A program made the position numbers and the translations under genes. DNA of 59,633 nt, taken from positions 1 through 59,633 of the forward strand of contig CAYMDJ010000002.1 in the NCBI GenBank assembly GCA_964389315.1, written 5' to 3'. Within the stretch, counting starts at the first letter, position 1. Each line of letters opens with the position of its first letter. The notes below the pieces were generated by a model, which was not told where the DNA came from, did no database searches, and was given only the letters and a program-made list of their open reading frames with translations. Shown here piece after piece: positions 20,118 through 59,633 of this stretch. This DNA comes from an uncultured archaeon (lineage in GTDB: Archaea; Aenigmatarchaeota; Aenigmatarchaeia; QMZP01).

Positions 20118-23100
20118 TCAGGCCTTTGAGCTGAGCCTCTTTATCATGCTTATCTCTTCTTTCCTCGTCGCGGGGATTGTTGCAGGACCTGTCGCGGGGG
20201 CGCTTATCTCCACGGGCGCTCCAGAAACCTCTGGGTAGACAATCTTTATCTCCTTCCTTTTCTCCCCGCTCTCCTGAAGGCTTCTCCATGCCTCCAGCTG
20301 GCCTGACATGTAGTCAACCCTGTTCTTGAAGGCATCCATCTCGGAGTCCATTATGTCCTCGTTGGTCTTTATGCGAGTCTCTATCTCGTCCCTGAGGTCG
20401 CTCACCTTTGCCTCCATGTCCTTGCCGTAATCCTTGATGCCACCGAGCCTTGTCCTCAGCTCCGTCACTGTCTCGCTGAGCTCCTTTATGGTATGCTCTG
20501 ATTCAGATAACCTCTTTACAAGTTCCTTCTGTCCCTCTGACATCTTCTTCATGGATTCCAGACCCATCTTCTCTATGCTCTCGCTGAGCTTCTCCTCTAT
20601 CCCGGGCATGCTCGCGAGCTCCCTTCCGAAGTCCTTTATCGCATTCTTTGTCCTTGACTCAAGCTCTCTGGATTCCCTGAGCACCTTGTCAAAATCCCGC
20701 TTTCTCCTCTCCTCTGACAGCTCGATGTCGCCAGCCACCTCTGAAATCTCCTTCTTGGCCTCGGCAAGGACCAGCCTCTTGTGGTCGTCCAGCATGCTCC
20801 TCGTCCTCATCTCCTGGTCCTTTGACAGCGACACGATGTCTGATTCTATCCTGGACATCCTCTCCCTCTCTGCGGATAGCTCTCCCTGAAGGCTTCTTAT
20901 CTCCTTAAGGGACGACTTGCCCTCTTCCTCAAGGCCCTCTATCTTCTCTGATATGTCCGAGAGGGAGGATATCTTTCCTGCCATCTCCTTTATCCTGGCA
21001 GAGTTGCTTCCGAAGACCTTGAGCAGGGAATCCATGACGGCAAGCTTGCTGCCAATCTCGTCTATCTCCCCGGCCGATATGTTCGAGAGGTTCTCCAGGT
21101 TCGCGAGGCCTGATATCCTCTCCTTTATATCGTTAATCTCCTCGAGGCCGGATTCCGTCTTCTTGGTCAGAGCGGAGACGCTGGATGACAATGATTTCTC
21201 CAGGACAGCTATCCTGCTGTTGAGGGTATTCTGTATGTCCTCCTGGGACGCTTTTACCAGGCTCAAATCAGAAGCCGTCCTGTTGATTAGTTCCGTGCTC
21301 TCGTCCAAATCAGAAGAGAGCTTGCTGTCCGTTTCCCTGTTACCGGATTCTATGTCATCAATCCTCTTGCTTATCGAATTCACCGTGCTGATGAATTCCG
21401 ATTCCGTGACAATCCCTCTGCCGAGGCCCTCGCTCATCTTTGAGAGGTGGGAAACCCTCTCCTTCAGGACCTGCACGTCGGCAGTCATGGACTCTGCCCT
21501 TGTCAGGCTCTTAGCGAGGTTGCCTGATACTATTGCCTGGGCCTTGAGCTCGTCATCGAGGGATATCAGATTCTCAGATAGCTTGCCGAGCCTCTTCTCG
21601 TTGCCTGACATGTATGAGTTGATTTTCTTCTCCGCGTCCTTTGTCCTTGCAAGCCATGCCTTTATGTCCTTTGTGTGCAGGCCTGCCTGCTCCTTCCTGG
21701 CTGCGGCTATGTCCAGTGAGAGCTGCTTCGTCCTTTCGTTTATTCCGGACTGGAGGGACTGGAAAGTATCCTTCTGGTCACTGGAGAGCTGCTTCACCCT
21801 CTCGTCAATCTCATTCTGGAGGGATATGCTGAAATCCTTCTGGTCCTGTGAAAGCTGCTTGATTCTCTCGTCAATCTCGTTCTGTAGAGAGAGGTTTATT
21901 TCCTCCTGTTCCCCTGAGAGCTGCTTCACCTTCCTGTCAATCTCAGAGCGCAGGGATGCAAGGATTTCCTTCTGACCTTCAGAAACAGCCTCAACGAACT
22001 TCCTCTGGTCATCTATCTCCTGCCTGATTGAGGACATATCCTGGAAAACCCTGTCAAGACGTGACTCCTTCTTCCTGTCAGTCCCGCCGAAGACCTTCTC
22101 CATCGCCGCTATCCTCTGCCTCTCGTCAGAGAGGCTCTCCTCAACGGACTTGAGCTGCTTTGAGAACATCTGGAAAATCTTTGAGCTTGACTCGATGTCC
22201 GTTATCCTCGCCATGAGGTTTTCAATATTTTCATGCAGTGAAGTGACGTCTTCCCGTTGCTTAACTGCCATTTGCTTAATCCTCTGGCTGATTTCAGAGC
22301 GTGCTGATGAAGAGACGGCCTTCTGCTCGTCAGAAAGTTTTCCGAGGATTTTCCTCTGCTCACCAATCTCCTTGTTGAGTGCCTTGGAATTCGAATCAAT
22401 GACCGTCATCCTTTCCGTAATCTTCTTGATGTCGTTCATCAGACCGGGGAAGGTTTTCGTGTCCGATTCCATCCTTGTAATCCTCGCCATGAGGTTTTCA
22501 ATGCCGTCCATTATTTCCGGGAGCGGCTTGGTTCCCATCTCGAGTGCAATCACCCTTCCCTTGACGTCATCGAGCTCCACCATGGCCTTCGGGAGGAGCT
22601 TTATGTTAGCAATCATCTCCCTTATCTTCTGCACCATGTCCATTGTCTTGGGTATCTGGCTGATCACCGCCTCCATGCCGATAAGCCTCTCCTCAAGATC
22701 ATCAACGGATTTGGTGTTGTCAGAGACATCGGCTACTATGTTCTCAAGTTTTGTCACCCTGTCCCTCATCGAATGTATATTGTCAACGCTCTGCTGGACG
22801 GTCTTCGAGAAGGACTCCAGCCTGACGAGGGTCTTTGAGAATTCCTCTATTTCAGAGCCGTGCTTCCCGACCGCGTCAATGAGCGGCTTGAGAGAGGAGA
22901 CCTTTTCCGAGAGCTTCTTTATCTCAGATTCGTGGAGGGATATTGATTTTATCGGGGCATCCAGGGAAGCGAGCCTCTGTGTTATTGCCTTTATCTCCTT
23001 CTCGTGCTCAGGTAACATACCTATGTCAGCTATCCTGTCCCTTATCCCCGATATCAGCTGCTGGTTCTTTGAGACGTCCGTGACCGCGAGGTCAAGTGCG

Positions 23101-25253
23101 ACCAGCTTCTCCCTGAGGGAGGCGATAATCTTCGCGTTCTCCGAAGCCTGCTTTGAGACCGAATCATAATCAGAAGAAAGGGCCTTGGAGTCAGAGAGCG
23201 TCTGCTGAAGCGCTGTTTCTATGTTATCCATGTCAGACCTCATGCCAGGTATTTCAGAAGCAGAATTCTGTAGGGAGACAATATCCTTCTGCATCCCGTC
23301 AAATCTCTTCTCCTGCGACTTGGAGTAGCCGTCCATCTCCGAAGCGAGGCCTGAAATGCGCTTCATCTCTTCAGAGAGCTTCGAGAGCTGCTCGCTCTTC
23401 TCCTTGTCAATCCTCCTGTCCATCTCAGACCTTATGCTCTTTGATTCCTTGCTGAGCTTTTCGTCAAGAATCTTCGAGAAGCTGTCAACGCTGTCAAGCC
23501 TCGAACGGACCACGTCTATCTCGGCGAGCGCATTCCTCACCTCACCAATCTCCCTGTCTATCCTGTCAAGACGTGACTCCTTCTTCCTGTCAGTCCCGCC
23601 GAAGACCTTCTCCATCGCCGCTATCCTCTGCCTCTCGTCAGAGAGGCTCTCCTCAACGGACTTGAGCTGCTCTGCAAGGGACTGGCTCCGCTCAAAGAGG
23701 ATCTCCTTGGCCTCGTTTATCTTTCCCACCGAATCCTCAACAGAGGATATTCTCTTAGGGACCTCCCTTGTCATCGCGTCAATGTTCCGTGTCCTTTCCC
23801 TGAGATTTTCCAGAACATCCTGGTTGTCTGATATCTGCTTGGAGGCCAGCTCCATCTTCGTCAGCCTCTCCTTCAGTTTCGCTATAGCATCAGCGTTCTC
23901 CTCGAGTGTGTCTATTCCCGATATCTGCTCCCTTATCTTTGATATTGTCTCGGCGTTCGATTTTGCCTGTCCGGTTATGGCCTTCAGGTTGCCGGACATC
24001 CTGCTGTCAATCTCTGCGATTTTCTCGGCTATCACCTTCCTGACGCTCTCCTGAGTCCTGTTGATTATCTTCTCGTCAGAGGCCAGCTCCATTATCTGCT
24101 TCTCTATGCCTGCCCTCTCTGAGGCGAGCCTCTTGTCAAGGGAGAAGAGCCTGCTCTCCGAGTCCTCGAGCCGCTTGTTGAGGTTGGAGAAGAGGTCTGA
24201 GAACTCTGAGCGGTTCACGGAATTCTTGGCGAAACCAGCTAGCATGGAATCTGCCTCTGAGAGCTTCTGCTTGATTATCTTTATCTCGGACGGGGCGTCC
24301 TCGAGCAGCCTGGAAAGCCTTGATAACTCTGAGTCCTGGGATTTCTTGTATCCCCTTATCTCCTCCTCGAGGTTGGATATCCGGTTTATCTCTGTCCTGA
24401 ATTCCATGAGCTGGGCCTTGTTGTCATCGAGCCTCTTCTGGTCAAAGTCCTTCCTTATGGAATCGGCAGCCTTCTGGAGGTCCTTCAGGAGTTCTGACCT
24501 GAGTTCTGCGAGGGAATCTCCCTGGAACCGGGAGAGCTTGCCCAGCTTTGAGTCCAGCGCCTTGGAGAACTCCTCAGCGCTGTCCGCCCTCTTCCTCAGA
24601 AGCTTTATCTCCGCCAGCGTCCCCTCCAGGTCAGCTATATTCTGGCTTATCTTGTAGAAAGCGCTGTCCTGGGTCTTCTTGTATGCACGGAACTCTTCCT
24701 CTATCCCGGCTATCCTCTTTATCTCATTCTTGAACTCTGATATCTGGGACTTGATGTCCTGGACGCGCTTCTTCTCGAAATCATTCTTTATCGAGTCTAT
24801 GTTCCTCTCCAGCTCCCTTATCATCTCCCTCCTCGTCTCTTCGAGGGACTTCGACTGGTCTCGGAGGCTTGAACGGAGAAGGTTTACTGATTCTAGGTCC
24901 TTCTGCATCATGTTAATCTGATTGATTAGAGAGTTTATGACAGACTCGTTCTTATCGCTCCTCTTCTTCTGCGAAGAAATTTCCTTATCAATGTCGTCTA
25001 TCGATCTGAGCTCGACGCCCATCTCAGCGAGCCGCTCCTTTATGGGTTCTACCTGGTTCTTCACGAAATCCATTATCCTCTGGCTCGCCTGCTGGAACGA
25101 TTCCTGCATCCTGTTGAGCCGCTCGGAAAAGGAGTTGGACCTGGTGATGAGCTCTTCCTTCTCCTTCTCGAGTGCGGCTATTATCCTCCTCTGCTGCTCC
25201 TCGTTCTTCTTGAGGCGGAGCACCCCTGCCTCAAGGTCGCTGAGCTCCTTCAT
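20118..25253 (-). CDS. giant cytoplasmic coiled-coil protein (1,711 aa), unknown function
   Basis: E/K/S/L/I/R-rich heptad-like sequence nearly end to end. There is no signal peptide, no TM and no P-loop. It carries internal repeats, including an exact 110-nt duplication. Its start overlaps the stop of the upstream coiled-coil gene (ATGA at 25250-25253). Confidence 0.8.
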   Translation of the reverse strand: MKELSDLEAGVLRLKKNEEQQRRIIAALEKEKEELITRSNSFSERLNRMQESFQQASQRIMDFVKNQVEPIKERLAEMGVELRSIDDIDKEISSQKKRSDKNESVINSLINQINMMQKDLESVNLLRSSLRDQSKSLEETRREMIRELERNIDSIKNDFEKKRVQDIKSQISEFKNEIKRIAGIEEEFRAYKKTQDSAFYKISQNIADLEGTLAEIKLLRKRADSAEEFSKALDSKLGKLSRFQGDSLAELRSELLKDLQKAADSIRKDFDQKRLDDNKAQLMEFRTEINRISNLEEEIRGYKKSQDSELSRLSRLLEDAPSEIKIIKQKLSEADSMLAGFAKNSVNRSEFSDLFSNLNKRLEDSESRLFSLDKRLASERAGIEKQIMELASDEKIINRTQESVRKVIAEKIAEIDSRMSGNLKAITGQAKSNAETISKIREQISGIDTLEENADAIAKLKERLTKMELASKQISDNQDVLENLRERTRNIDAMTREVPKRISSVEDSVGKINEAKEILFERSQSLAEQLKSVEESLSDERQRIAAMEKVFGGTDRKKESRLDRIDREIGEVRNALAEIDVVRSRLDSVDSFSKILDEKLSKESKSIRSEMDRRIDKEKSEQLSKLSEEMKRISGLASEMDGYSKSQEKRFDGMQKDIVSLQNSASEIPGMRSDMDNIETALQQTLSDSKALSSDYDSVSKQASENAKIIASLREKLVALDLAVTDVSKNQQLISGIRDRIADIGMLPEHEKEIKAITQRLASLDAPIKSISLHESEIKKLSEKVSSLKPLIDAVGKHGSEIEEFSKTLVRLESFSKTVQQSVDNIHSMRDRVTKLENIVADVSDNTKSVDDLEERLIGMEAVISQIPKTMDMVQKIREMIANIKLLPKAMVELDDVKGRVIALEMGTKPLPEIMDGIENLMARITRMESDTKTFPGLMNDIKKITERMTVIDSNSKALNKEIGEQRKILGKLSDEQKAVSSSARSEISQRIKQMAVKQREDVTSLHENIENLMARITDIESSSKIFQMFSKQLKSVEESLSDERQRIAAMEKVFGGTDRKKESRLDRVFQDMSSIRQEIDDQRKFVEAVSEGQKEILASLRSEIDRKVKQLSGEQEEINLSLQNEIDERIKQLSQDQKDFSISLQNEIDERVKQLSSDQKDTFQSLQSGINERTKQLSLDIAAARKEQAGLHTKDIKAWLARTKDAEKKINSYMSGNEKRLGKLSENLISLDDELKAQAIVSGNLAKSLTRAESMTADVQVLKERVSHLSKMSEGLGRGIVTESEFISTVNSISKRIDDIESGNRETDSKLSSDLDESTELINRTASDLSLVKASQEDIQNTLNSRIAVLEKSLSSSVSALTKKTESGLEEINDIKERISGLANLENLSNISAGEIDEIGSKLAVMDSLLKVFGSNSARIKEMAGKISSLSDISEKIEGLEEEGKSSLKEIRSLQGELSAERERMSRIESDIVSLSKDQEMRTRSMLDDHKRLVLAEAKKEISEVAGDIELSEERRKRDFDKVLRESRELESRTKNAIKDFGRELASMPGIEEKLSESIEKMGLESMKKMSEGQKELVKRLSESEHTIKELSETVTELRTRLGGIKDYGKDMEAKVSDLRDEIETRIKTNEDIMDSEMDAFKNRVDYMSGQLEAWRSLQESGEKRKEIKIVYPEVSGAPVEISAPATGPATIPATRKEEISMIKRLSSKA
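22050..22159. repeat. 110-bp exact direct repeat, copy A (inside the 1,711-aa coiled-coil gene)
   Basis: I read 22050-22159 as identical to 23562-23671, base for base. In the protein both encode ...QLKSVEESLSDERQRIAAMEKVFGGTDRKKESRLDR.... Confidence 0.85.
23562..23671. repeat. 110-bp exact direct repeat, copy B
   Basis: See copy A. The copies are 1,512 bp apart and in frame (504 codons). Confidence 0.85.
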
Positions 25254-27760
25254 GATGACAGCTCCTTTATTATGCTTCCGACCCTCTCCCTCTGCTCCCT
25301 GACGTCCCTCTCGAGCTGGCGCCTCTCTGCAATGTTCTGCTTGAGGGCCTTCTCGAGCTCCTTCATGTCCAGGTTTATCTTCTCCTCAAGGACGCCATAA
25401 AGAGACCTTATCTCCTTTACCTGCTTGTCTATCATTGATATCTGGCTGACTATCCTCGACATCTGGTCTGAGACCTTCTCACCGCTCGCGTCCATCCTTG
25501 AATCGAATGCCTTGCTTATGTCGTTCAGCTCGTCTGTCCTGTCCTTCAGGAACTTTATGTCCGCCAGCGCTCCCTGAAGCAGAGTAAGGTCGTTCCTGAG
25601 TGCATCGAGTCTTGACTCATGGGATTTGTTGGTTGCCTCGAGCGTCTCCTCAAGCGCGGCGAGCCTCTTGAAGTCTGCCTTTATCTGGTTGAGCTGCTCC
25701 TGCCTGTCAAGAATCCTTTTCTCATCAATGCCCTTCTCCATCTCTTTCAATCTCTTCTCAAGCGATGAGCGCAGCTCGTCGCTTATTACATCGAGCCTCT
25801 GCTTCTGGTATTGTATCATGTCGCTGAACTTCTTCTCGAGCTTCTCGGAAAAGCTCTCGACGTCAGATACCCTCGGGCCAAAGGCCAGGGCCCTTGATAC
25901 GCTGTCCTTCATCTTGCCCATCTCATCATTCAGCTTCTCGACGGATTTGTCCATGACCTTCCTGCCTGCCCTGAGCTCTTCCTCGAGGCTGGCCACCCTC
26001 TTGGTCTCTGACTTGAACTCCTCGAGCTGGTTCTTGGAGTCAATCTCCCTCCTCTTGTCCATCTCCTTCTTTATGTCAGAGACCTCGTTCTTGAGCTCCT
26101 TCTTCAGGGAATCGCCGAGCTTTGAGATGCTCTGCTTCTGCCCCTCAAGGAGCTCATTGAACCTGGCCTCCTGAATCGTCAGCCTCTGCGCCATCGCTGA
26201 AATGTCCTCGCGGTTGGTAGAGAGCTTCTCTGCGAGGCCGCTGATTTCCAGGCCCATTGATTCTGACCTCTGGACAACCATGTTCCTTGCCTCTAGGAAC
26301 TTGTTGATTGCGATGTCCTGGTTGTCAATCCTCTTGGGAAGGGTCTTTGTCTCTGACCATATGGTATTGATGTTATCCCTGGTCCCCTCGTTCAGCTTCA
26401 GCTGCTTCTCAGTGAATCTCTTCAGCCTGTTGACGTCTGCCTGGAGTCCCCTCTCTATCGAGGACACCCTCTTCTCGAGCCAGGCCTTTATGTTCTCCGG
26501 TGCCTCTATGTTCTTTATTGCCTCGTATAATTCGTTCTCTCTCTTGTCAGAGAGCTTCATCCTCTCATCAATCAGCATGTCCCTCTTCTCGAGCTCCGCA
26601 AACCTCGGCTGGATGAGCGAAAGGAAGGTCTTGTGGATGTCCTTGTCAATCTTGTCCATGTCCTTCTTCTGGATTTCCCTGAGGTCCTGGTATATCTTTT
26701 CAGTGACGCTCTCTATCTTCTTCTTGATGTCATCCCTGAGGCCCTTGACACCGTCTGAGAGTCGCTCCTCCTGCTCGTCCATGTCCTTGGAGAGCTGGTC
26801 CTTGTCTGACCTGAGCTCTGCTATGTCCTCCCTGAGCTTCTGGAGGTTCAGGACCTCCTCCTTGAGGTGGTTGAGCCTGACGTTGAAATCATTGACCAGG
26901 TCCCTCATGTCCCTTACCTCGTTCACGGCAGGGTCGAGCTTTGTCTTGAGCTTCTTGCCTACCAAATCCGGTATCACCTGCTCTATTATCTCGTCGCTGG
27001 AGAATATCAGCTTCCTGAGCTTCTGGACGTTGTCAGGCCCGAGCTTCTGGTTCAACTGCTCGTATCTCTCCTCAAGGTCAGGGAACCTCTCGAGTATCTT
27101 TGACTTGTCCTCCAGGTTGGAAACGCGGTAATCCAGCTTCTTGCTGGTGTTGTCAACGTTCCTCGCTATCTCCGATATTGCCTTCTTCAGGTCGAACATC
27201 TGCGACTGGAAATCAACCTCTTCCCCGAACGAGGCCAATTGCCTTCCCGCTGCTCCTCCAGCGGAGGGAACGGGCTGGAGTGCCTGCTGGTTTAATCTTT
27301 CGGTCAGTTCTGTTAATTTCGCTTCCATGTCAGAAAGCTTGCCGAGCTTGCTGAGTTCTTCTGACATCGCTGAAAGCTTTGAATCGACCTTCTTCTTTAT
27401 CATTTCTGATAATTCCTTTTTCATGCCCGATTCATTCTTTGATGAAGAATTCTGCGCAGGTGCCTGGGCTGGCTGGGGATTCGTGCTGGTTTGTTGCGGC
27501 TTTTCCTGGGCAGCAGCCTGGGATGATTTCAGCCCCTCCTCGAGATTTTGCGCGGCCTTGCCGAGGTTTGAAAGCCCTCCGGAATCGTTTTCCTTTCCCT
27601 CCGGCGATTCACGGACTCCCTTGGTCACCTCTTCTATTATGCTCGCGAGATTCCTGTTTTTCTCGAGAAGCTCAAGCTTTTCGCTCTCCAGCTTCTTGAT
27701 GTTGTCATTTTCCTTGTCAAGCTCCTTCTTTACGTTACCGAGCTTCTTTTCACCGGCCAT
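25250..27760 (-). CDS. cytoplasmic coiled-coil protein (836 aa), paralogous modules with the 1,711-aa protein
   Basis: Coiled-coil composition with a Q/P/A-rich linker near the N-terminus (AAQEKPQQTSTNPQPAQAPAQ). It has no TM or signal peptide. It shares ~90-aa modules with the downstream gene (for example IKKEMDKRREIDSKNQLEEFKSETKRVASLEEELRAG). Confidence 0.8.
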   Translation of the reverse strand: MAGEKKLGNVKKELDKENDNIKKLESEKLELLEKNRNLASIIEEVTKGVRESPEGKENDSGGLSNLGKAAQNLEEGLKSSQAAAQEKPQQTSTNPQPAQAPAQNSSSKNESGMKKELSEMIKKKVDSKLSAMSEELSKLGKLSDMEAKLTELTERLNQQALQPVPSAGGAAGRQLASFGEEVDFQSQMFDLKKAISEIARNVDNTSKKLDYRVSNLEDKSKILERFPDLEERYEQLNQKLGPDNVQKLRKLIFSSDEIIEQVIPDLVGKKLKTKLDPAVNEVRDMRDLVNDFNVRLNHLKEEVLNLQKLREDIAELRSDKDQLSKDMDEQEERLSDGVKGLRDDIKKKIESVTEKIYQDLREIQKKDMDKIDKDIHKTFLSLIQPRFAELEKRDMLIDERMKLSDKRENELYEAIKNIEAPENIKAWLEKRVSSIERGLQADVNRLKRFTEKQLKLNEGTRDNINTIWSETKTLPKRIDNQDIAINKFLEARNMVVQRSESMGLEISGLAEKLSTNREDISAMAQRLTIQEARFNELLEGQKQSISKLGDSLKKELKNEVSDIKKEMDKRREIDSKNQLEEFKSETKRVASLEEELRAGRKVMDKSVEKLNDEMGKMKDSVSRALAFGPRVSDVESFSEKLEKKFSDMIQYQKQRLDVISDELRSSLEKRLKEMEKGIDEKRILDRQEQLNQIKADFKRLAALEETLEATNKSHESRLDALRNDLTLLQGALADIKFLKDRTDELNDISKAFDSRMDASGEKVSDQMSRIVSQISMIDKQVKEIRSLYGVLEEKINLDMKELEKALKQNIAERRQLERDVREQRERVGSIIKELSS

Positions 27761-28057: not shown

Positions 28058-28714
28058 ATGATAAAGAAAGAGAAGATAACGGACTACAGGAACTTCTGGC
28101 TCATCTGGCTCAGTTGCGCAGGAAAACCAGACAAGGGAGAGTCTCTATTCAAGATACAGGACGCGTGGAACATAAAGACCAACTATCTCTACCACCATGA
28201 GACCGGTCTCGGAAAGCCATTATACATGCATATGATAAGGAAAAACTACATCCGCAAGCAAAAGACGAAACTCGTCCCGAACTTTGCCTGGATAAACGAG
28301 CACATAAAGGAAATCGTTGGTGAGGGGGTGGGCAATACGTGGTATCCGAGCGTCTTCATCGGCGGGCGGTGGCCGGTTGTCCAGAGTTTCATAGAGAAGA
28401 ACGCGAACGTTCTTTTCAGCATGGAGAACCTAAAAATCCTCTACAAGGAAGATAGGAACATACTTGGCGAGTCCGGACGTCACATCTTTACAGACATTTT
28501 CCTTTACGTAATCTTTTCAAACATGATAGAGTTCTGTAAAAAATACCACGCTGACATTGTATTAAGGATCCTTTCTACCTTCATATCAGTGTTCGCGGAC
28601 AGGGACCTGCTCAATTACATAAGGAAGGTTCACAGCCAGATCGGTGATAACGTACCAGTATTGATATCCAACGAATCAGAGATGAACAGGCTGATGTATC
28701 CATTCAAATGGTAA
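28058..28714 (+). CDS. hypothetical protein (218 aa), orphan, AT-richer than its neighbours
   Basis: ORF 27974-28714. ATG 28058 (MIKKEKITDYRNFW...) is preferred because TTTTATATTA lies ~25 nt upstream. The protein is soluble and W/Y/K/N-rich. No motif recognised. Confidence 0.5.
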   Translation: MIKKEKITDYRNFWLIWLSCAGKPDKGESLFKIQDAWNIKTNYLYHHETGLGKPLYMHMIRKNYIRKQKTKLVPNFAWINEHIKEIVGEGVGNTWYPSVFIGGRWPVVQSFIEKNANVLFSMENLKILYKEDRNILGESGRHIFTDIFLYVIFSNMIEFCKKYHADIVLRILSTFISVFADRDLLNYIRKVHSQIGDNVPVLISNESEMNRLMYPFKW

Positions 28715-28765: not shown

Positions 28766-29008
28766 TGAGCAACAATCAAATTATTCTAAAAAGCTCAACC
28801 AAGAAACGAACCCTTTTACTGCTCATTGCTTCGCCAGGCAACTGCGGCGAATGATGGTTGGTGACAAAAGCGTTCACGGAAAAAACAGGTGTAAATTCTA
28901 CGTGTTTGGCTTAAGCCTTTGTGGAAGCGAGTGTCTGCTTCCCGCATTGGTTATGTATTGAAAGAGCGGGCACTTTAGATCCGGTAAAGGCTTATTTGCG
29001 TGTTGCTC

Positions 29009-29059
29009 CTCGGCTTGCGACTAAAACAACATGGCAAGCGGTAGCGTCTGTAAGCTGAG
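29009..29059 (+). repeat. hairpin-repeat copy 1
   Basis: CTCGGCTTGCGAC-...-GTAGCGTCTGTAAGCTGAG forms a 10-bp stem with two G:U-type pairs. An internal GCAAGC (29034-29039) offers an alternative partner for GCTTGC. Confidence 0.55.
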
Positions 29060-29096
29060 AAGTAGCCTATTTATCCTCAAAGGTCTTCTGGTTGCT

Positions 29097-29149
29097 TATC
29101 AGCTTGCGACTGGACCAATGGGGCAGGCGGCAGCGTCTGTAAGCTGATA
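29097..29149 (+). repeat. hairpin-repeat copy 2
   Basis: TATCAGCTTGCGAC-...-GCAGCGTCTGTAAGCTGATA forms an 11-bp stem. The outer base pairs differ from copies 1 and 3 but stay complementary. It ends at the TATA-like box of the minD-like gene. Confidence 0.55.
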
Positions 29150-29195
29150 TTTATAAAGCTAAAGCCTGAATATAGAGTATCTGGGCCTGAAGGTG
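29147..29195 (+). promoter_or_regulatory. TATA-like box (ATATTTATAAAG, 29147-29158) and SD (AGGTG, 29191-29195) of the minD-like gene
   Basis: An AT-rich box lies ~43 nt upstream and a purine-rich GGTG motif lies 5 nt upstream of ATG 29201. Confidence 0.45.
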
Positions 29196-29200
29196 TGGAA

Positions 29201-29974: not shown

Positions 29975-30015
29975 TATCATTAGCAGAATGGATTTCAATA
30001 GTTTTCTGGTTGCTC

Positions 30016-30053
30016 CTCGGCTTGCATAAGGCGGAAGCCTATCGTAAGCCGAG
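30016..30053 (+). repeat. hairpin-repeat copy 3 (short form with GGAA-capped inner stem)
   Basis: CTCGGCTTGC-ATA-AGGC-GGAA-GCCT-ATC-GTAAGCCGAG. It shares the 5' flank TTCTGGTTGCT with copy 2. Confidence 0.55.
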
Positions 30054-30123
30054 AATAGTTTCTTATATCACGAAAACCATATTAATTAATAGTCGCTGTA
30101 ATGGAAATGTAGTGCTGGTTGGC

Positions 30124-34715: not shown

Positions 34716-34749
34716 TATATTTTGTTTATGTTTTATTTAAATCCGACAA

Positions 34750-34780
34750 GGCGTCCGTTTTGCGGCGTCTGTTTTATAAA
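34750..34780 (+). promoter_or_regulatory. direct repeat GGCGTCYGTTTT x2 overlapping the TATA-like box TTTTATAAA of the KaiC-like/LamG operon
   Basis: GGCGTCCGTTTT (34750-34761) and GGCGTCTGTTTT (34764-34775) are separated by 2 nt. The second runs into TTTTATAAA (34772-34780). Confidence 0.4.
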
Positions 34781-34822
34781 CCGGTTCTCCAATATATTAA
34801 TTACTATAGTAGTGGTGGTTCT

Positions 34823-54000: not shown

Positions 54001-57000
54001 GAGGCTGCCCTCTGCTTCAGGCGTGTTAACGATTATCTCCATCTCAGGCGCGTCCGTTATGTTGCACTTGAAGGTTATGTTGCCCTTCTGCGTCGGCTCG
54101 AAGGTGTAGTTGGTATAGCCGGTGCTGTTGGTGGTGAAGTTGTCTATGAACTGGTAAGGCTGGCTATACCAGTGATACCAGAGGTCAACGCCATAGTTCG
54201 GAATGCCGTTCAGGGATTCTGAGTCGATGACCCTGCACATGGTGGTGAAATTGATAGGGTATGGCAGCTGAGTCCCGTTCACCGGATACTTCCACTGGAC
54301 TATGGAGAGGCCTGAAACTATTATCGTGACAAAATCCTCGCCGGACGCGTAATAGGTCTTGCTGGCATTGACCTTTATCGTCCTGTTGCCGGTTGCCTGG
54401 TAACTCAGGTTGAGAGGGATTGACATCCCGTTGCCCAGGAAGCCTGACTCGTTCCACCAGTTCGGTGTCGTGCTCACCTGGCTGCCAGCCTCATCCGTCA
54501 CGTTGACCGTGAGCGTTATCGTCTCGTTCTTTGCATGGGCAGTGTTGTTCTCAGGGGACGTTATGTTCAGGACGAGAACCCCCCTCGCCTCCAGGTATGT
54601 TTCATAGGTATCGGAGTCCTCGAGCCCTGCCTTTGTGGCATTCATGTATACGGTGTAGTTGCCTGGTGAGATTGTGTCAGTGACGTTGTAGGTGATGTTG
54701 CAGTCTCCGATGGAGTTGGTTATGCAGAAGTCAATGAATCCGCTGGAGTTCCAGAATGTCACGTTCGCTCCCGCTGCATTGCCAACGTTTGCATCCTTCA
54801 CGTGCACGCCTATCTCTGTCTCGTGCGGGTCGTAGCTGTCGTTCCTGTATATCCAGCCCTCTGAAAGGTCAATGTCATCTATCTTGAGCTGCCTCCTGAC
54901 CCTTATTATCGAGGTCCTGTAGCTCATGTTCGCAGTGGTGTTGTAATACAGGGAAACGTCGTTGCCTATCGTGCAGGTTATGTTGTAATAGTCCGGGTCC
55001 TCCAGGCCGGTGTTCCAGTCCCAGGTCGCCTCACCGGCGGAGCTCGTATCGTCGCTGTCCTGGTATGTCCCGTTCTTGTAGAACGAGACGTTGTATCCTG
55101 TTATTGGCTGGTCGGTGTTGTTGTCGCGCACGTAACACCTGACAGTGACCCACGTCCCGGCATCAATCTCTGTCCCGTTGGCCGGGAGTATGTTGTAAAC
55201 CCAGCTCCACCCGTAGATAAGGATGCTCGTCTGGTTGTTTCCGAGGTCGTAATACTGCCTCGTTGCATTGGTGTTTATCGTCGCCGGGCCGAGGCCGTAG
55301 CTGGGCGGGACCAGCCAGGTGGAGTTATACCAGCCCTGGCTTCCGTCCGTCGTATCATTGAGCAGGACCCAGGTCCCGTTGAACCAGTATGCATGGGCAT
55401 CGTCTATCCGGTCACCGCAGTCGTCCCCTACGGTGAGGTTGAGGGTCTCTGTAACGTTCCTGTTGAGGACCTGCCCTGTGGAGGGGGCGGTGGTGTTGAT
55501 ATAGAGCTGGCCGTAGACCGTGAGCTGGCGCGCGCTCGTGTTGAGCGGCTGGTAGCAGGAGTCCCAGGTCCCTCCTATCCAGTTCTGGACTCCCACGTAG
55601 GAGTCGCAGTCAGGCGGGTAGTTGACCGAGCACCTGCCGCTGTTCGCAGAGGTGCAGTCCATCTCCACCGTGTAGTTGGTCTGATTCTCTGTTATCCATA
55701 CCTTTCCGTCCGTCCCGTTGGGATACTCGAGTCTTTCGGCATCCAGGTCCCTTATTATGAATTCAAGGAAGGCTGTCCCTCCCTCTCTCCTCACGGTCGC
55801 GTTGGAAGCGCCAAGCTGGAAGGTCACGTTGTCTGCCTCTATGGTGAAGTTCAGCGGGGAGGTCTCATCAGAGAAGTTGAACTGGTCTATTATATGGTAT
55901 TTATATTGATTGACCCCCATGTCAGAGCACGAGAACCACTGGTAGAAGTATATGTTCCTGTTGCTTCCCACGAGGTTGTTCCTGTAAGTCTGGTTTATCA
56001 GGGTCCAGTTAGTCCAGTTTCCTTCTGACTGGTTCCACATCCTCTTCCACAGGGTTATGTTGTTGTAGTTTCCGTCGCTGTCCGTTGCAAGGACATAGAA
56101 TTCAAAGGTTTCTCCCCACCCTCCCAAGGACGGGTAAACGCTCGGGCTCGTGACGGTTGGCGGATATCCCAGGAAGAACTTGTCGGTGTAGAAGGTGAAG
56201 TTATCCCCGTAGAAGGTCTTTGTGGTTTTCATCCCGAGGCTATACCACCCGGTTGAACGCTCCGTGTCCAGCCACGTGTAGTTGTACCATCCGCCGCCCT
56301 CGGACCACTGGCCGCTCGTGTTGTGCGCAGGCAGGTAGTTCGTCCTGTTGTATTGGTTCGGGAACTTGTATATGTTGTAGAGGATGTTGACCCCCTCCAC
56401 AAGCGAGCAGTCGTCCTCGACTGTTCCTGCGAAAGGAACGGGCTGTCCCCATTCGTAACCGTCGCCATCAGGATACCATATAACGGGCTTCAGGTTGCTC
56501 TGGACCTCGAGGTCGAACGCGCTCGAGTTCTTCGAGCTGAAGCATGTGTCGTTGTCTATCCCTCCTACACCACCCTTCCATTTCTGGATGCCCACGGAAT
56601 AGTTGCAGTCAGGTTCCGGGGCCTCTGTCGGGAAGATGTATTTTATGTGCGAGCTTGCGTTTGACACGACGGGGTTTCCTATGTCCCACGAGGAGGAGTT
56701 GGATGCGTTCTTTGTCACCCAGAAGGTGGCGTTTATGTTCTCCCCTGCTATCGTGTTCCTGTCAGTGTCCCATATGAGGAGGGCAAGCTCTGTCGCGTTT
56801 GTTCCGTTCCTCCATACGGTGTTTCCATTACCGTAATAGTATTGGACCTCGACATCGTCCTTCTCTATGGTGAAGTTGGCAGGTGAAGTTTCGTTCCAGA
56901 GCGCAGGAATCCTGGTGTCCTCTGCCCGCAAATAATATTCCCAGGTCCCTATGTTGTAGCAGTCCTCATCCCGCCAGGAAAGTATAACATTCTGGGACTG

Positions 57001-59633
57001 GGGTCCCTCCACCATGGTGCTGTTCTTTGGCGAGCCCCAGGTCCCGATGCCATATTCCTTTATGTAAAGGTATATGGTGACGTTGTCAAGGTCCTCGTCA
57101 GTGGCAGTCACGTTGAAATAGAACCTCTCCCCCCAACCTCCCGGGTCTGTCATCGGGTATGAGTCGTTGAGGACGGGCTTTGTGCTTATGAAGAAGTGGT
57201 CTGCCTGGTAGTCGCTTCCGTTATAGTAATAGTCCTTGCTGGAGTTGGAGGTGGTTGAATACCACCTTGCCGGCTTCCCTGCGGTGTCCCACTCGCATTC
57301 ATAGTAACCGAAGGTCTCGTTCGTTACAGGTGTGCAACCGAATTCCGTTCCGCTGTCATTGTTAGTCACGGAAAGGGAGACGTTCACGTCATCCCTGTAG
57401 GAATCGCAGTCATCATCCACGTATATCCTGAGGGTCACGTTCTCTATTATCCTCTCGAAATCGTCCCCTATGCTGGGTTCCTGTATGTCGTCGAACAGGG
57501 CTCCCCATATCCCTATATAGTATTCGGGCGTGACGTTGTTGTAGTAGCAGGTGTCTGTTATACGGGCGTAGAGCGTCTGGTTCCCGGGGATATAGACAGG
57601 AACGTCACACGCGGGCGCGAAGTGTATGTCAGTATAGCCAGACGAGTTGGTCGTGTTGAGCGTCCCGTAATCATACTCAGAGCCGTTGTATGTCACGTAG
57701 AGCGTAACGTTGTATCCCTGTGAAACAAGGACGTTCTTTATGGTATCAGTGACGTTGAAGGTTATCACGCCGGGAGTGCCTGAACGGACCACAGAAGCTG
57801 GTGAGGAGACATACCGGATTATGGCGCTGTCTGCCGTTATGTTCGGCCCTGATATGTTGCTGGTGTAGTTGGTGTTGGTCCCGTCCATTATCTTGAAGTG
57901 GAACAGGTTGTCGTCACCTATGTGGCTGCAGTCAAAGCTTCCAACCGTCAGGTTGCACCAGTCCCTTCCGCCTATTATGGTGGTGTTGTTCATCAGCTGG
58001 TAGGACGACCCTCCGTTGGTTGATACGTAGAGCTCGCAGGTGATGTTGTCCTGCTGGGTATCCCATATATACGTTGAGTATTCGAACACGTCCCCCCAGC
58101 CGCTCTGGTTAGGTGTCAGTCCGGTCTGGTTTATGGTAGGCGGCGTATTCACAAGGAATACCCAATCGTCCCAGACAGTGGAATTACTGTTGTACCATGC
58201 CTTGCTGGAATTCAGCCTTATGTCCCAGAACCCACCCATGTGGAAAACAGTGGCCCAGGTGTAGTTATACCACCCAGAGCCATTCACGTCCGGGGGGTAT
58301 GATTCCCAGTCACCGAGCGGCGAGCCGAACGACATGTCTACGGATACAGAATCCTGCAAATCGCTCATCCCGCAATCCGTGGTTATATTGAAGCTCGTGA
58401 ACAGAGGATCTCCCACTGCCGTCACGTTTCCTTCTTCCGGAAGGTATATCTGGTTCTTGAGCTGGCCTATTATGCTCATGTTGTAGCTGCTGCCGAAGGC
58501 AGGAGTGTAATAGCATTCGTCTTCGGACGTTATGTTGGCCCTGAACCTATGTGTGCCTGTCGTGTAGAGGGGGGTGCACACAGGGTCAAAATAGATACCC
58601 AGGTCACCGCTGGAATTTGTCTGATTGAGCGTTCCTGAATCCCAGTCATTCAGATCAGTTCCGTTGAGGTTGACGAATATGGTTCCGTTTATTCCCCCGC
58701 TTGTTATGATGCCACTGCCGTTGTCAAGATCTATGAAGTAGAATGCGAGGTATGTTGTTTCAGAACCCTCCCTGTTGACCATGGAGTTTATGCTAAAGCT
58801 CCTTGGTATCGCGGTGAGCCTGTCCTTCAGCATGTCAAAGCTTCTCGTGTCTGTCGTGGACGTGTCGCCCCACATGTCAGTCGCATTGATCTTGAAGTAG
58901 TTCGTTCCCACGTCATTGCACTCAAAGCTCATTGTCAGGTTGTACTCCTGCTCTCCACTGGGCGTTAGCGTGAGGTTCGTAACAAGTGTCCAGTTGTCTG
59001 TTGAGTTGTAGGACTTCCATAGATAGACGTCATTTGAATCACCGAGCGGAATCTCACCATCCTTCAGGGTGATGTTGAAGTTGTGGATGGAGCCCCATGC
59101 ATACGTGGGGATTGCCGAATGCCACACCGGTCCCCAGTCAAGCTGCGGAACCTCGCTCAGCCAGAAGGAATCGTTGTCCTTGTACGTTCCCGAGGAGTTG
59201 TAGTAATTCTTACTCGCGGAGACAGTGGTGTTGAAATCCCCGAGACAGAAGTCTCCCCACACGGCTGTTTCGGTTGTGCTGAAATTGCAGTTATACCAGC
59301 CACCGGTCTCGTCCTCGGTGTTACCCTGCGTGCATGAAAACGCGCACGTGACCTCGTTCTCTGCGCCGAACTGCACGGTGGCTCCTGCAACATCTCCTGC
59401 GGAACCGCTGCATTCGTCGCTGACGTACGCCCTTACAGTGATATTGTCAATCCCTCTCCTGTAATGCTCGCCGTCCGGTATGTCCATCGCTATTTCAAGC
59501 GGGTCTGTCCAGACATTGTACTCAAAATTCTCTGATATGTTGTCCTGGTAGCAGTCTGAATCAACCAGGGATGCCTTCCATTCCTGAGGGCCGGTGCTGT
59601 ATTTTGGTGAGCATCCTGGGTCAAATATACTAT
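48100..59633 (-). CDS. giant surface protein (>3,843 aa, 5' end beyond the window) with C-terminal TM helix and cytoplasmic HerA/FtsK-type (DUF87-like) P-loop ATPase domain
   Basis: The listed ORF starts at an internal Met (59487). I translated 59488-59633 in the same frame and found no stop (...SIFDPGCSPKYSTGPQEWKASLVDSDCYQDNISENFEYNVWTDPLEIA-MDIPDG...), so the gene continues past the window. More than 3,300 residues are N-x-S/T-rich beta-type modules, followed by a Cys motif, a poly-Gly/Ala linker and CARDB-like domains. The TM is at 49222-49293, followed by KEKHKKKSR. See the ATPase domain feature for its motifs. Confidence 0.9.
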   Translation of the reverse strand, partial: SIFDPGCSPKYSTGPQEWKASLVDSDCYQDNISENFEYNVWTDPLEIAMDIPDGEHYRRGIDNITVRAYVSDECSGSAGDVAGATVQFGAENEVTCAFSCTQGNTEDETGGWYNCNFSTTETAVWGDFCLGDFNTTVSASKNYYNSSGTYKDNDSFWLSEVPQLDWGPVWHSAIPTYAWGSIHNFNITLKDGEIPLGDSNDVYLWKSYNSTDNWTLVTNLTLTPSGEQEYNLTMSFECNDVGTNYFKINATDMWGDTSTTDTRSFDMLKDRLTAIPRSFSINSMVNREGSETTYLAFYFIDLDNGSGIITSGGINGTIFVNLNGTDLNDWDSGTLNQTNSSGDLGIYFDPVCTPLYTTGTHRFRANITSEDECYYTPAFGSSYNMSIIGQLKNQIYLPEEGNVTAVGDPLFTSFNITTDCGMSDLQDSVSVDMSFGSPLGDWESYPPDVNGSGWYNYTWATVFHMGGFWDIRLNSSKAWYNSNSTVWDDWVFLVNTPPTINQTGLTPNQSGWGDVFEYSTYIWDTQQDNITCELYVSTNGGSSYQLMNNTTIIGGRDWCNLTVGSFDCSHIGDDNLFHFKIMDGTNTNYTSNISGPNITADSAIIRYVSSPASVVRSGTPGVITFNVTDTIKNVLVSQGYNVTLYVTYNGSEYDYGTLNTTNSSGYTDIHFAPACDVPVYIPGNQTLYARITDTCYYNNVTPEYYIGIWGALFDDIQEPSIGDDFERIIENVTLRIYVDDDCDSYRDDVNVSLSVTNNDSGTEFGCTPVTNETFGYYECEWDTAGKPARWYSTTSNSSKDYYYNGSDYQADHFFISTKPVLNDSYPMTDPGGWGERFYFNVTATDEDLDNVTIYLYIKEYGIGTWGSPKNSTMVEGPQSQNVILSWRDEDCYNIGTWEYYLRAEDTRIPALWNETSPANFTIEKDDVEVQYYYGNGNTVWRNGTNATELALLIWDTDRNTIAGENINATFWVTKNASNSSSWDIGNPVVSNASSHIKYIFPTEAPEPDCNYSVGIQKWKGGVGGIDNDTCFSSKNSSAFDLEVQSNLKPVIWYPDGDGYEWGQPVPFAGTVEDDCSLVEGVNILYNIYKFPNQYNRTNYLPAHNTSGQWSEGGGWYNYTWLDTERSTGWYSLGMKTTKTFYGDNFTFYTDKFFLGYPPTVTSPSVYPSLGGWGETFEFYVLATDSDGNYNNITLWKRMWNQSEGNWTNWTLINQTYRNNLVGSNRNIYFYQWFSCSDMGVNQYKYHIIDQFNFSDETSPLNFTIEADNVTFQLGASNATVRREGGTAFLEFIIRDLDAERLEYPNGTDGKVWITENQTNYTVEMDCTSANSGRCSVNYPPDCDSYVGVQNWIGGTWDSCYQPLNTSARQLTVYGQLYINTTAPSTGQVLNRNVTETLNLTVGDDCGDRIDDAHAYWFNGTWVLLNDTTDGSQGWYNSTWLVPPSYGLGPATINTNATRQYYDLGNNQTSILIYGWSWVYNILPANGTEIDAGTWVTVRCYVRDNNTDQPITGYNVSFYKNGTYQDSDDTSSAGEATWDWNTGLEDPDYYNITCTIGNDVSLYYNTTANMSYRTSIIRVRRQLKIDDIDLSEGWIYRNDSYDPHETEIGVHVKDANVGNAAGANVTFWNSSGFIDFCITNSIGDCNITYNVTDTISPGNYTVYMNATKAGLEDSDTYETYLEARGVLVLNITSPENNTAHAKNETITLTVNVTDEAGSQVSTTPNWWNESGFLGNGMSIPLNLSYQATGNRTIKVNASKTYYASGEDFVTIIVSGLSIVQWKYPVNGTQLPYPINFTTMCRVIDSESLNGIPNYGVDLWYHWYSQPYQFIDNFTTNSTGYTNYTFEPTQKGNITFKCNITDAPEMEIIVNTPEAEGSLYVRDVTPPVITNVSAIPNSSLEANLNYTNITANVTDDIGVDLVWAQIELPNGSIHNHTMTNMTPTGDLYRLTYIPLIDGEHAVTVWARDLGWEYNKNYSYAGNLSVWGKSWGRVYTTYEILVNGITQTNDFDVDLVVNFTSEGPANMYDVELIAYDEPNDTIEINDTFQSCGDMAPWDNCTWDLHVRVPEGTPPMLIKLWVNATWTNPELTTNMSSNYTMLDVSSNPVVEINPSYLHNTTPHDRTTYIGTVTVISSGNDAVEDIELALVDAAGNFATECPECEITIIPSTQGFLAAGYNFTVQLTAIIPAGQDPDDYWTYLRATTSNAGIDDSMLNLTVPLNTSWWRTPTSFTQVLALLNTSGFIGNISVFNTGNRKTAFRVYKLGNGTDLVYTEPSYFDLDKQTRRNVSVYYQILTGQQQGLYYVNLLIRNTTATPNEYGTDFYLNVTDIPPNITQVNITPMIFEVGFEVVNVSAHITDNFDVSTAWINVTLPNGTILKQNMNASLKPVYNVTYNGTSGGYHNISVCANDTAGLWGCTAKVPVLGAANTPMLIEPNVTDINISDVMLYTGSSFDVNFTLSPEYARAYSVNANISVPSGWTSIPSAFSVGTIMKYNSGTGEASIFIVNGTAPGEYYVNISSNWTNLDSSEGSNLTSIIVNVLPNPVIDIVQDNLSYVIMGGNSYNNTMTIQSIGNANATNITFHCLSGTVCSEFSQTFYPVNISLMEPGNSEDVEVQVEVPLMYETGQYLGTLEANASGESTDTVVLIIMVPLNLSWSQVPSLIDVTVSHETEGTFGYIEIHNIGNAYIILDVVRSGDIYPFIGINATKLYMPIGNYETLRINYTAPFVTQLTNYSGLITTQNVSADPPTRYTTVYLRVHPYSLNITSPTETSPTINITPGQSVWVYANVTYAGLPLNDSNYLNFTLVMSNATWSQQMTFNNLTFSNTTNLWGMNITAPNISLARGYDINLTVIYTNYSLVLSDYEIKAIIYQDPFPPLISLFVPAKVPSNSTVEIITNATDTGGVKNATLTITYPDNSTQSFNMTQLYMVDDVYVFRQFFSNTSQVGVHYASTTACDYSGNCNSTNTSFEIYPAVIFQGYTRDEEKIHKPPISVNFTLFVPGTNTELFSFASNATLGGYYNETIDLRTYDIRTDFLDETATLYSVYLQDDVYNPYMFGEIPNVRLPTKSLKGVWINTSQLNYTYGTMNFTSEECYTAGTCKTSDFSLTSLGIYRCSSWILLSGCTNATGWTRLDTDVNTSSGIVTANSTTMTGAFVLAQFICGDNNCEDDYGESNANCPSDCPIIIPEPPPPAEGGGGGGAAGGAGAGAGAAAGAAAGAPQIEIDSTLIYVVLDQGDYEIHSMEIRNNRNTPITVETSVQAGSPIWDMVTIERPLITVAGGQTEQIKIKLYSMPNTAPGIYTGDIITHLVELNKTYRTPVTINVVQVPIPLLDVAIKALTKAVAPGEEFRFEVTLVNMGETATVEDIVAEYKIKNLNTDEVITTMKETVGVDQKYAFRRNITIPDDIPYDRYVIEANVSYWYGTKYAFASDSFEVTELPGLLVALRNVFMSWVTYLIMFMMIPAVYGGFYGWRWWKEKHKKKSRYIFPMDMKKLPQPGKDSFLIGRIAETDVNAYMDVRQLQTHGISAGSTGAGKTVSAMIAVEELLKRKIPIIVFDPTAQWTGFLRPCRDKKMLDLYPNFGLKPTDARRFPGRLIKITDPETSIDVRNYMTPGEITVVLIDSMDPAQLDTFVRRTISDMFKIPWPEARELKLFVVYDEVHRLLPKYGGKGGYVALERGCREFRKWGIGIWLISQVLMDFKGAIRANISNEIQMRTKYTGDIRRVKQKYGSEYASTITKLKTGTGMFQNAEFNHGKPYFIEFRPLLHDVGRLSEVEINTYVKYDTELNNIEMEIARLKSRGLDVTDIEFELKLAKDKVRQTMFTMAKTYMDSVKNRIRKIGGTVK
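48103..49200 (-). other. HerA/FtsK-superfamily ATPase domain (C-terminal, cytoplasmic) of the giant protein
   Basis: Walker A HGISAGSTGAGKT (GSTGAGKT = 49030-49053) is followed by IIVFDPTAQW. Walker B is LFVVYDEVHRLLP (48643-48681). The REFRKWGIGIWLISQ...NEIQMRT block resembles the HerA/DUF87 RKyGvgL..SQ..ir block. A C-terminal helical tail follows. Confidence 0.75.

Follow-up and report, generated by a model that had tools for sequence, protein, structure and literature searches.

Do the giant surface proteins, long coiled coils, ATPases and two-component genes encoded on one contig of an uncultured archaeon of the Aenigmatarchaeota (CAYMDJ010000002.1) belong to a single apparatus, and is it of a known kind? 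We analysed a stretch of 59,633 nt of this contig (hereafter the window) by mapping its open reading frames (ORFs) and scanning the encoded proteins against Pfam and NCBIfam; the island in question spans positions 20118–59633 and holds 14 genes. An original prediction, made from the sequence letters, had proposed an envelope-spanning contact machine that matched none of the known archaeal surface systems, SPEARE proteins included. That the genes belong together is borne out by our comparison with 150 related loci. The supposed novelty of the largest protein is not, since direct alignment assigns it to the SPEARE family. The reading that we favour, as a probable one, is that the island represents the Aenigmatarchaeota version of a conserved DPANN SPEARE cluster and encodes an apparatus for contact at the cell surface, with a scaffold in the cytoplasm. 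In DPANN archaea, all cultivated members of which, to our knowledge, need physical contact with a host cell, SPEARE proteins are the foremost candidates for adhesion.

The giant is encoded on the minus strand at 48100–59633. There is no in-frame stop up to base 59633, hence the protein is longer than the C-terminal 3,843 aa that lie in the window, its N-terminus lies past the window end, and so does the end of the island. The same gene reaches more than 4,190 aa on a Joint Genome Institute (JGI) contig, and a complete gene, of 4,395 aa, is found in a relative represented by a 270-kb contig. The ectodomain is built from beta-sandwich modules, identified by Pfam as NPCBM_assoc/MG2/Rib and Ig-like. 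Following an Ala/Gly linker, a membrane-proximal pair of beta-sandwich domains (49327–49974, residues 3220–3435), which is kept in minimal family members of 722 aa, precedes a single transmembrane helix (49237–49317, residues 3439–3465; part of a long helix, 40–70, in the structural model). This helix, near the C-terminus, is the only hydrophobic one; it is followed by a basic stretch and by a cytoplasmic P-loop ATPase with a C-terminal three-helix coiled coil (48103–49236; Walker A at 49030–49053, Walker B at 48655–48675), and most of the protein is thus predicted to be extracytoplasmic.

The reference for the SPEARE family was the C-terminal part of the Ca. Nanohaloarchaeum antarcticus protein, as printed in Fig. 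S18 of the supplementary information of Hamm et al. (2019; PMC6642349). BLASTP aligned the giant with this cytoplasmic domain over its whole length, with 40% identity across 359 columns (E 3e-90). Because of this alignment and the common architecture, we assign the giant to the SPEARE family. The laminin-G domain that belongs to the SPEARE definition gave no LamG match in the 3,438 ectodomain residues within the window; the neighbouring protein of 1,349 aa does contain one. A further domain criterion of the definition found no Pfam match in the giant, and no serine-protease or toxin-like domain was detected by Pfam in its in-window part. The same domains are disputed in the founding members (PMC10266531), and we therefore regard them as doubtful defining features. 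Sec signal peptides are clear in the short homologues of loci L003 and L085; the giant's own N-terminus lies past the window and past all contigs recovered for its species. In most assemblies the giant gene is found at contig ends, probably because its repeated modules break the assemblies. In a relative on one JGI contig (Ga0527077_0545, positions 1–11203; locus L002), gene calling gives a giant of 8,615 aa with several short fragments behind it and HerA as an ORF of its own (400 aa), which could reflect a frameshifted or pseudogenized gene or an assembly error within the repeats.

What kind of motor does the giant carry? An alignment of 20 sequences across phyla shows no variation in the Walker A and B residues. 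A profile search of the PDB with the ATPase returned HerA first (4d2i, E 2e-12). The AlphaFold model of the C-terminal part of the giant (pLDDT 84.5, pTM 0.79) gave hexameric HerA translocases as its best Foldseek matches (9x1l, E 1.2e-11; 4d2i, E 1.9e-11; probability 1.0), with TcpA, DndH, STIV2 B204 and FtsK ranking lower and no VirB4 structure among the top 50. The domain thus models as a HerA-type hexameric DNA translocase with the RecA-like core of the FtsK–HerA superfamily. Membership in the repair or anti-phage HerA families was rejected: NCBIfam HerA profiles scored 15.8–24.6 bits against cutoffs of 800–970, and PADLOC gave partial matches only. An anti-phage HerA system was likewise rejected on these partial matches and on the lack of an effector partner. 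No NurA, Sir2 or DUF4297 partner is encoded in the window, the related loci having been searched for the window's own proteins only. Weak NCBIfam matches of the giant ATPase to TraD and CedD were also seen, the latter covering the P-loop only (22.8 bits against a cutoff of 600), and the precomputed matches of its homologues include the TraG/VirD4, TrwB and AAA_10 families. From the HerA-first results in both sequence and fold searches we therefore suggest that the 'restriction enzyme' and 'VirB4/TraG' labels of the SPEARE cytoplasmic domain are better replaced by 'HerA-fold, FtsK–HerA superfamily'.

The gene neighbourhood of the giant was compared by mapping the window proteins onto six-frame ORFs of related loci, with the ATPase as anchor in 85 of them and the gene for a 218-aa protein in 70. 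The 10-kb flank upstream of the ATPase is wholly filled by the giant ORF in most genome loci. Downstream, the gene for the coiled-coil protein cc592 follows the HerA giant in 70 of 72 species-level genome loci, on the same strand within at most 1.5 kb and often overlapping it or within 60 nt. The next gene encodes surf1972, a second giant, in 34 of 58 loci, and MinD in a further 9. The 218-aa gene is followed by that of MinD (41/49 loci) and the latter by that of the coiled coil cc836 (22/31), while upstream of the 218-aa gene lies either surf1972 on the same strand (22/38) or a divergent cc836 (10/38), together 32 of 38 loci. The canonical collinear order is giant, cc592, surf1972, 218-aa protein, MinD, cc836 and a further coiled coil, cc1711; it is seen in L104, L105, L108, L112, L121–L123, L125 and others, and the divergent layout of our window is common to its closest relatives. 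These counts argue that the seven genes form a conserved cluster, which in this genome is rearranged and split by a sensory insertion. The original prediction was to be given up if homologues were scattered and never co-localized in related genomes, and what we find is decisively the reverse.

The transmembrane and ATPase end of the giant has hundreds of homologues, those with names coming mostly from Aenigmarchaeota and other DPANN archaea. When one genome per GTDB species was scanned, at least 593 contigs carried a relative. The closest is 97% identical and comes from an archaeal metagenome-assembled genome (MAG); matches of 72–75% identity that carry a phylum name (L008, L011) are from Aenigmatarchaeota, and further relatives are labelled Micrarchaeota, Woesearchaeota, Nanoarchaeota, Nanohaloarchaeota, Altiarchaeota and Parvarchaeota. 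An exhaustive HMMER search gave 365 clusters (50% identity) at E ≤1e-30, with lengths of 450–7,665 aa and the domain usually C-terminal. Some genomes bear two separate SPEARE-type loci (L079 and L083 in one Nanoarchaeia MAG, L060 and L077 in another MAG), and Ca. Nanopetramus SG9 has been reported with four.

Reduced versions of the cluster outline its basal part. The minimal systems L003 and L085 consist of four genes, encoding a 722–727-aa HerA protein, a 527-aa coiled coil, a 333–344-aa single-pass protein and MinD; the first three align to residues 3179–3838 of the giant, to residues 204–413 and the N-terminal motif of cc592, and to residues 1675–1966 of surf1972. The basal module therein comprises (a) a signal peptide, two beta-sandwich domains, one transmembrane helix, the HerA-fold ATPase and a coiled coil, (b) a coiled-coil partner, (c) a protein with a beta-sandwich, a stalk, a transmembrane helix and a SHOCT-like tail, and (d) MinD. 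It is found in L063 (labelled Altiarchaeota), L079 (labelled Nanoarchaeia) and the short-form and other loci L003, L085, L071 and L074; in L063 the cc592-, surf1972- and MinD-type genes are similar and the HerA gene is cut at the contig end. The four-gene module occurs across DPANN phyla. Two observations accompany these loci. The L003 sequence upstream of the 722-aa HerA gene (1–4434) holds four small genes that have no annotation (180, 194, 46 and 303 aa) and one of more than 719 aa, in an order that recurs on three independent contigs; none resembles a protein of the island, and the minimal system might include them as additional components. In L063 (5378–6736) a 452-aa protein with a MinD domain and an extra region is encoded directly after the surf1972-type gene, and a second, ordinary MinD gene comes next.

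How might the giant be connected to its partners? Cytoplasmic cc592 (46308–48086, minus strand) appears to be coupled translationally to the giant: the junction reads TAA-AGGAGGTG-ATG, with a 13-nt spacer that contains a Shine–Dalgarno sequence, and relatives show overlapping stop and start codons. A profile of the cc592 family matched only generic coiled coils in the PDB (E 0.029 or worse). The second giant, surf1972 (40389–46307, minus strand), begins directly at the stop codon of cc592 (TAGATG) and comprises an N-terminal signal anchor, a beta-sandwich ectodomain, an extracellular helical stalk, a transmembrane helix (40647–40703) and a cytoplasmic tail. Ig-like modules common to the large proteins, as originally proposed, were found again (giant against surf1972, E 1.5e-11; LamG1349, the 1,349-aa protein, against surf1972, E 2.6e-5; values ranging to 8e-4). 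The accompanying proposal that these proteins have the same membrane-proximal cassette is weakly supported, by E-values of 2e-7 to 4e-4 from small-database comparisons. Topology prediction agreed with that proposed earlier, namely large ectodomains, single transmembrane helices, cytoplasmic tails that bear motifs and cytoplasmic coiled coils.

A SHOCT-like motif of about 30 aa is common to cc592 and the tail of surf1972. A hidden Markov model (HMM) of the motif, built from homologues in other genomes, was run on all 522 six-frame segments of the window; it matched three sites in cc592 (independent E-values 8e-4, 4e-7 and 1e-9; motifs at 47928–48023, 46668–46757 and 46317–46388, minus strand) and the surf1972 tail (40419–40514, minus strand; 1.4e-12), and nothing else. 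A further copy had been proposed in LamG1349; it is not significant (0.66 or worse) and was rejected. The Pfam SHOCT family (PF09851) gave 21.2 bits with the isolated surf1972 tail (E 2.3e-4), under its cutoff of 27, and no match with the cc592 motifs. Among complete homologues, 57 of 87 cc592-type and 35 of 88 surf1972-type proteins contain the motif in its strict form, compared with none of 187 background ORFs, and in most carriers it lies 17–32 aa from the C-terminus. Minimal systems keep it in their coiled-coil protein as well as in the tail of their single-pass protein (consensus LEEQYKKGLISKEAYEKLKKRNEKKL).

The remaining members of the core lie at the other side of the island. The 218-aa protein (orph246; 28058–28714, plus strand), originally described as an orphan, belongs to a conserved family of 86 clusters of unnamed proteins, all of those with a taxon label being Aenigmarchaeota. 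Its true start is probably M29 (base 28058), which gives the length of 218 aa. The model (pLDDT 88.9) has an N-terminal domain of three helices and a beta-hairpin, winged-helix-like in appearance, and a helical C-terminal domain; a Foldseek search with it returned nothing significant below E 0.1, the weak top matches being winged-helix regulators (best E 0.68). The MinD protein (29195–29974, plus strand) has the deviant Walker A motif GKGGVGKT and an amphipathic C-terminal tail, and scores 203.7 bits with TIGR01969, above the cutoff of 201.75. A role in positioning envelope machines is known for archaeal MinD proteins such as Haloferax MinD4. A core of about 19 nt, TGGTTGCTCCTCGGCTTGC, is present in three plus-strand copies (29000–29018, 29089–29107 and 30007–30025; 0–3 mismatches, chance expectation 0.01) inside hairpin-forming elements of about 60 nt, the third of which folds with z = -3.0. 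Two copies are in the 480-nt spacer between the 218-aa gene and minD, an unusually long one (roughly 30–215 nt in relatives), and one is just after the minD stop codon; these could represent a small repeat, a hairpin with a regulatory role or a terminator.

The two Glu-, Lys- and Leu-rich coiled coils cc836 (25250–27760) and cc1711 (20118–25253) are both predicted to be cytoplasmic and are encoded on the minus strand with an ATGA overlap. As had been noted, they have repeat modules in common: a module of about 110 aa was recognized by eye, and the proteins are 27% identical over 292 aa (E 8e-21). They had to be considered as SMC or Rad50 proteins and were rejected as such; the matches are at the level of the coiled coil and neither protein has a Walker A head.

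Between the two sides of the core lies a block of about 11 kb with sensory genes. On the plus strand it encodes iKaiC1, a KaiC-like protein without a P-loop (30010–30660, likely start near 30121), a sensor histidine kinase (30723–33968) with HisKA_7TM, extracellular dCache, HAMP, HisKA and HATPase_c domains, a KaiC-family ATPase with an intact Walker A motif (34652–35674) and, 12 nt downstream, LamG1349 (35687–39736), with a signal peptide, LamG and beta-sandwich domains and a multi-pass helical C-terminal region. The minus strand encodes two response regulators consisting of a receiver only (34344–34715 and 33937–34347, joined by an ATGA overlap) and a second protein without a P-loop, iKaiC2 (39733–40341). 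The first of the P-loop-less proteins matches Pfam KaiC with 32 bits (cutoff 26.6) at profile positions 52–160, neither contains the motif GxxxxGK[ST], and the two are paralogues, as predicted (29% identity, E 7e-18); by sequence they fit the published concept of the inactivated KaiC, iKaiC (PMC5847659). The annotated TTG start of the KaiC gene produces a 64-nt overlap (34652–34715) with the opposite-strand receiver and homologues align only from about residue 62, so that the true start is probably downstream of 34715. The original prediction had counted the kinase, receivers, KaiC, iKaiC and LamG proteins as parts of the machine. The block is present in at most 4 of 42 loci, all closest relatives, and L156 has the divergent layout of the window without it, beside the same SecDF and FAD_binding_3 genes. 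For these reasons we interpret the block as a lineage-specific insertion into the conserved cluster and not as part of its core.

The island is embedded in what appears to be ordinary chromosome. Its ORF coordinates, strands, lengths and junctions are exactly as originally given, and Pfam and NCBIfam agree that 20118–59633 encodes no enzyme of metabolism or information processing. The left 20 kb hold archaeal housekeeping genes (RimK, Dph2, CNNM, phosphoglucomutase, AglB/STT3, SecDF, PEP synthase and TIM), base composition does not break at the island edge, and an Rfam scan found no RNA family in the whole window. A mobile or horizontally acquired island was rejected: there is no compositional break, integrase or tRNA, and relatives keep the flanking SecDF and FAD_binding_3 genes. 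The three large ectodomains contain 203 (giant), 115 (surf1972) and 41 (LamG1349) N-x-S/T sequons, and the oligosaccharyltransferase AglB/STT3 (6358–8697) is encoded in the same window, which suggests heavily glycosylated fibres. Outside the island, 1.3 kb 3' of the AglB/STT3 gene and on the same plus strand, with three minus-strand ORFs in between, a 1,056-aa ORF (10047–13217) has a signal peptide, 52 N-glycosylation sequons, a C-terminal transmembrane helix and no Pfam match; it is a candidate S-layer-type glycoprotein.

We propose the following model for the contact apparatus. Beneath the membrane, the ATPase domains of the giant would come together as a hexameric ring, as is the case for all of their close structural relatives, and this ring would bundle the glycosylated ectodomain fibres at one site of the cell surface. 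Produced in step with the giant, cc592 would dock the tail of surf1972 to the base through the SHOCT-like modules. MinD and its small partner, the 218-aa protein, would place or license the assembly, and cc836 and cc1711 would form a coiled-coil scaffold beneath the membrane. In this lineage, the kinase, the CheY-like receivers and the KaiC and iKaiC proteins would tune the apparatus to an extracellular signal. It would mediate contact with another cell, presumably the host, and ATP hydrolysis would drive the translocation or remodelling of a substrate. The fold favours DNA, which we name only with caution because there is neither a channel protein nor a nuclease.

Several points weigh against this model. 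We infer every functional step beyond domain identity and gene linkage; the conserved core lacks a polytopic, channel-forming membrane protein and hence an obvious conduit for a polymer; the assignment of the SHOCT-like motif falls under the Pfam cutoff (21.2 against 27 bits); near-universal conservation in Aenigmatarchaeota would also fit a housekeeping role in the envelope; and some homologues come from MAGs labelled Heimdallarchaeota or Nitrosarchaeum, which may be binning errors. In its boldest form, the proposal would make a HerA-motor ring with glycosylated fibres, a second giant linked through SHOCT-like motifs and a sub-membrane coiled-coil lattice placed by MinD into a DPANN contact organelle that moves a macromolecule between symbiont and host. 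This we regard as a tentative idea with the odds against it; if true, the basal module would represent a previously undescribed kind of system, ancient and spread throughout the DPANN, with DNA as the best guess for its substrate from the fold.

A DNA conduit is one rival. A membrane-anchored hexamer of the HerA/FtsK type would pump DNA through the membrane of the symbiont, either to exchange it or to import that of the host as a source of nucleotides; the giant ectodomains would keep hold of the partner cell, and MinD/ParA and the winged-helix-like protein would handle the DNA. A function of SPEARE proteins in taking up and degrading DNA was proposed by Hamm et al. (PMC6642349), and the best fold matches of the ATPase are all double-stranded DNA translocases (HerA–NurA, Sulfolobus HerA, anti-phage HerA, TcpA, STIV2 B204 and FtsK); the weak CedD and TraD matches and the pairing of a ParA/MinD gene with that of a winged-helix-like protein point the same way. 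However, the conserved core has no nuclease and no polytopic channel such as that of CedA or FtsK, the CedD match is confined to the P-loop and far below its cutoff, the winged-helix call is not significant, and La Cono et al. (2023) find no endonuclease domain in SPEARE (PMC10266531). We consider this unlikely. La Cono et al. instead annotate a VirB4/TraG-like domain in the nanohaloarchaeal giants and propose a role of this kind (PMC10266531), which here would make the ATPase the motor of a type IV-secretion-like system that injects effectors into the host. The precomputed TraG/VirD4, TrwB and AAA_10 matches of the homologues and the presence of the coupling protein TcpA among the fold matches are in keeping with it. 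Yet HerA dominates these matches and VirB4 is missing from the top 50, the cluster contains neither other type IV secretion components nor conserved candidate effector genes, and the place of the second VirB4/TraG ATPase of nanohaloarchaea is taken by cc592 here and in 70 of the 72 loci. We consider delivery of effectors very unlikely.

The giants could also be the cell's own coat, resting on a coiled-coil cytoskeleton and placed by MinD in the service of shape or division, with no special role in contact. Such a housekeeping scaffold would explain a chromosomal cluster that lies beside SecDF, AglB and genes of core metabolism without compositional anomaly and that occurs in most sampled genomes of Aenigmatarchaeota, and MinD together with long coiled coils is typical of cytoskeleton and division. 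It accounts less well for a coat protein fused to an ATPase with a strongly conserved active site, which has no known precedent in S-layers, or for an ectodomain that varies hugely in sequence and length (450 to >7,600 aa), as in proteins that recognize a partner; moreover, a separate candidate S-layer-type glycoprotein is encoded at 10047–13217. On this evidence we judge the scaffold to be quite unlikely. Finally, the several oppositely oriented transcription units of the window might suggest a chance neighbourhood of surface, signalling and coiled-coil genes that are independent of one another. For the seven-gene core this is refuted by synteny: dozens of species-level genomes and contigs from metagenomes keep the order, some of them in a collinear arrangement on a single strand, and cc592 and the surf1972 tail have a motif in common, which leaves chance adjacency next to no probability.

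What does the preferred reading, a SPEARE-centred contact apparatus, add? With the giant, a known family gains a member, and the role proposed for that family has already been published. In the literature that we found, SPEARE proteins are treated almost as stand-alone giants. Here the SPEARE gene proves to belong to a conserved, operon-like cluster, whose other members encode a dedicated coiled-coil partner, MinD, a further single-pass giant and two coiled coils of great length; to this are added a short docking-type motif common to two of the partners, a minimal four-gene form across DPANN phyla, and a HerA translocase fold that corrects the published restriction-enzyme and VirB4 annotations of the cytoplasmic domain. 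We found no description of cc592, surf1972, the 218-aa protein, MinD, cc836 or cc1711 as partners, or of the SHOCT-like motif, in the SPEARE literature, and no published description of the cluster, the minimal module or the HerA fold of SPEARE, although they may have been described elsewhere. The cryo-tomography papers on DPANN contact structures PMC11420986 and PMC11329633 contain no reference to HerA, MinD, ATPases, coiled-coil proteins or such a gene cluster. The cluster thus provides a short list of candidate proteins and contacts for the DPANN contact machinery, which could be tested in nanohaloarchaeal co-cultures if the strains carry the partner genes.

Among known systems, archaea couple KaiC-family ATPases, iKaiC domains, receivers and FleN/MinD to surface structures and signalling (Makarova 2016, PMC4858521; Galperin 2018, PMC5847659). 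Those machines are type IV pili or archaella, whereas the island has no pilin, PilB/FlaI or TadC and was rejected as such a locus. The arCOG01314 secretion or remodelling complex (Makarova et al. 2015, PMC5898192) resembles it as a predicted envelope complex of Ig-like membrane and S-layer-like proteins with an ATPase; it was rejected since its MoxR ATPase, vWA and DUF4350 proteins are all absent from the island. Pfam and NCBIfam gave no matches in the island to the type IV secretion parts VirB4, VirB6, VirB8 and VirB3-like or to a coupling protein with a relaxase, and a link to the YN1 cone organelle was dropped as analogy only. FtsK/SpoIIIE, TrwB/TcpA and the crenarchaeal Ced ATPase likewise place an N-terminal membrane anchor before a cytoplasmic FtsK–HerA motor, but have two or more transmembrane helices or separate channel subunits and no ectodomain. 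The HerA translocases (HerA–NurA, Sir2–HerA and DUF4297–HerA) have the RecA-like core fold and Walker A and B motifs of the island ATPase and are its best PDB matches in sequence and fold; in contrast to them, the island protein is anchored in the membrane behind a giant ectodomain and lacks a NurA, Sir2 or DUF4297 partner.

The closest comparison is with the SPEARE proteins, giants described in Nanohaloarchaeota by Hamm et al. (2019, PMC6642349) and re-annotated by La Cono et al. (2023, PMC10266531), for which a role in host adhesion or secretion has already been proposed. Hamm et al. reported similar cytoplasmic domains in Aenigmarchaeota, Woesearchaeota, Micrarchaeota and Altiarchaeales, the same taxa as recovered here, and no SPEARE-like sequences in Nanoarchaeota (PMC6642349). 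The island differs in that its cytoplasmic domain models as HerA and not as a restriction enzyme or VirB4, and in that the gene 3' of the giant encodes a coiled coil, where a second VirB4/TraG ATPase is described in nanohaloarchaea. In both, a very large adhesion ectodomain is joined by one transmembrane helix near the C-terminus to a P-loop domain that is cytoplasmic and conserved and that ends in a coiled coil, and both families comprise short (~720 aa) as well as giant forms.

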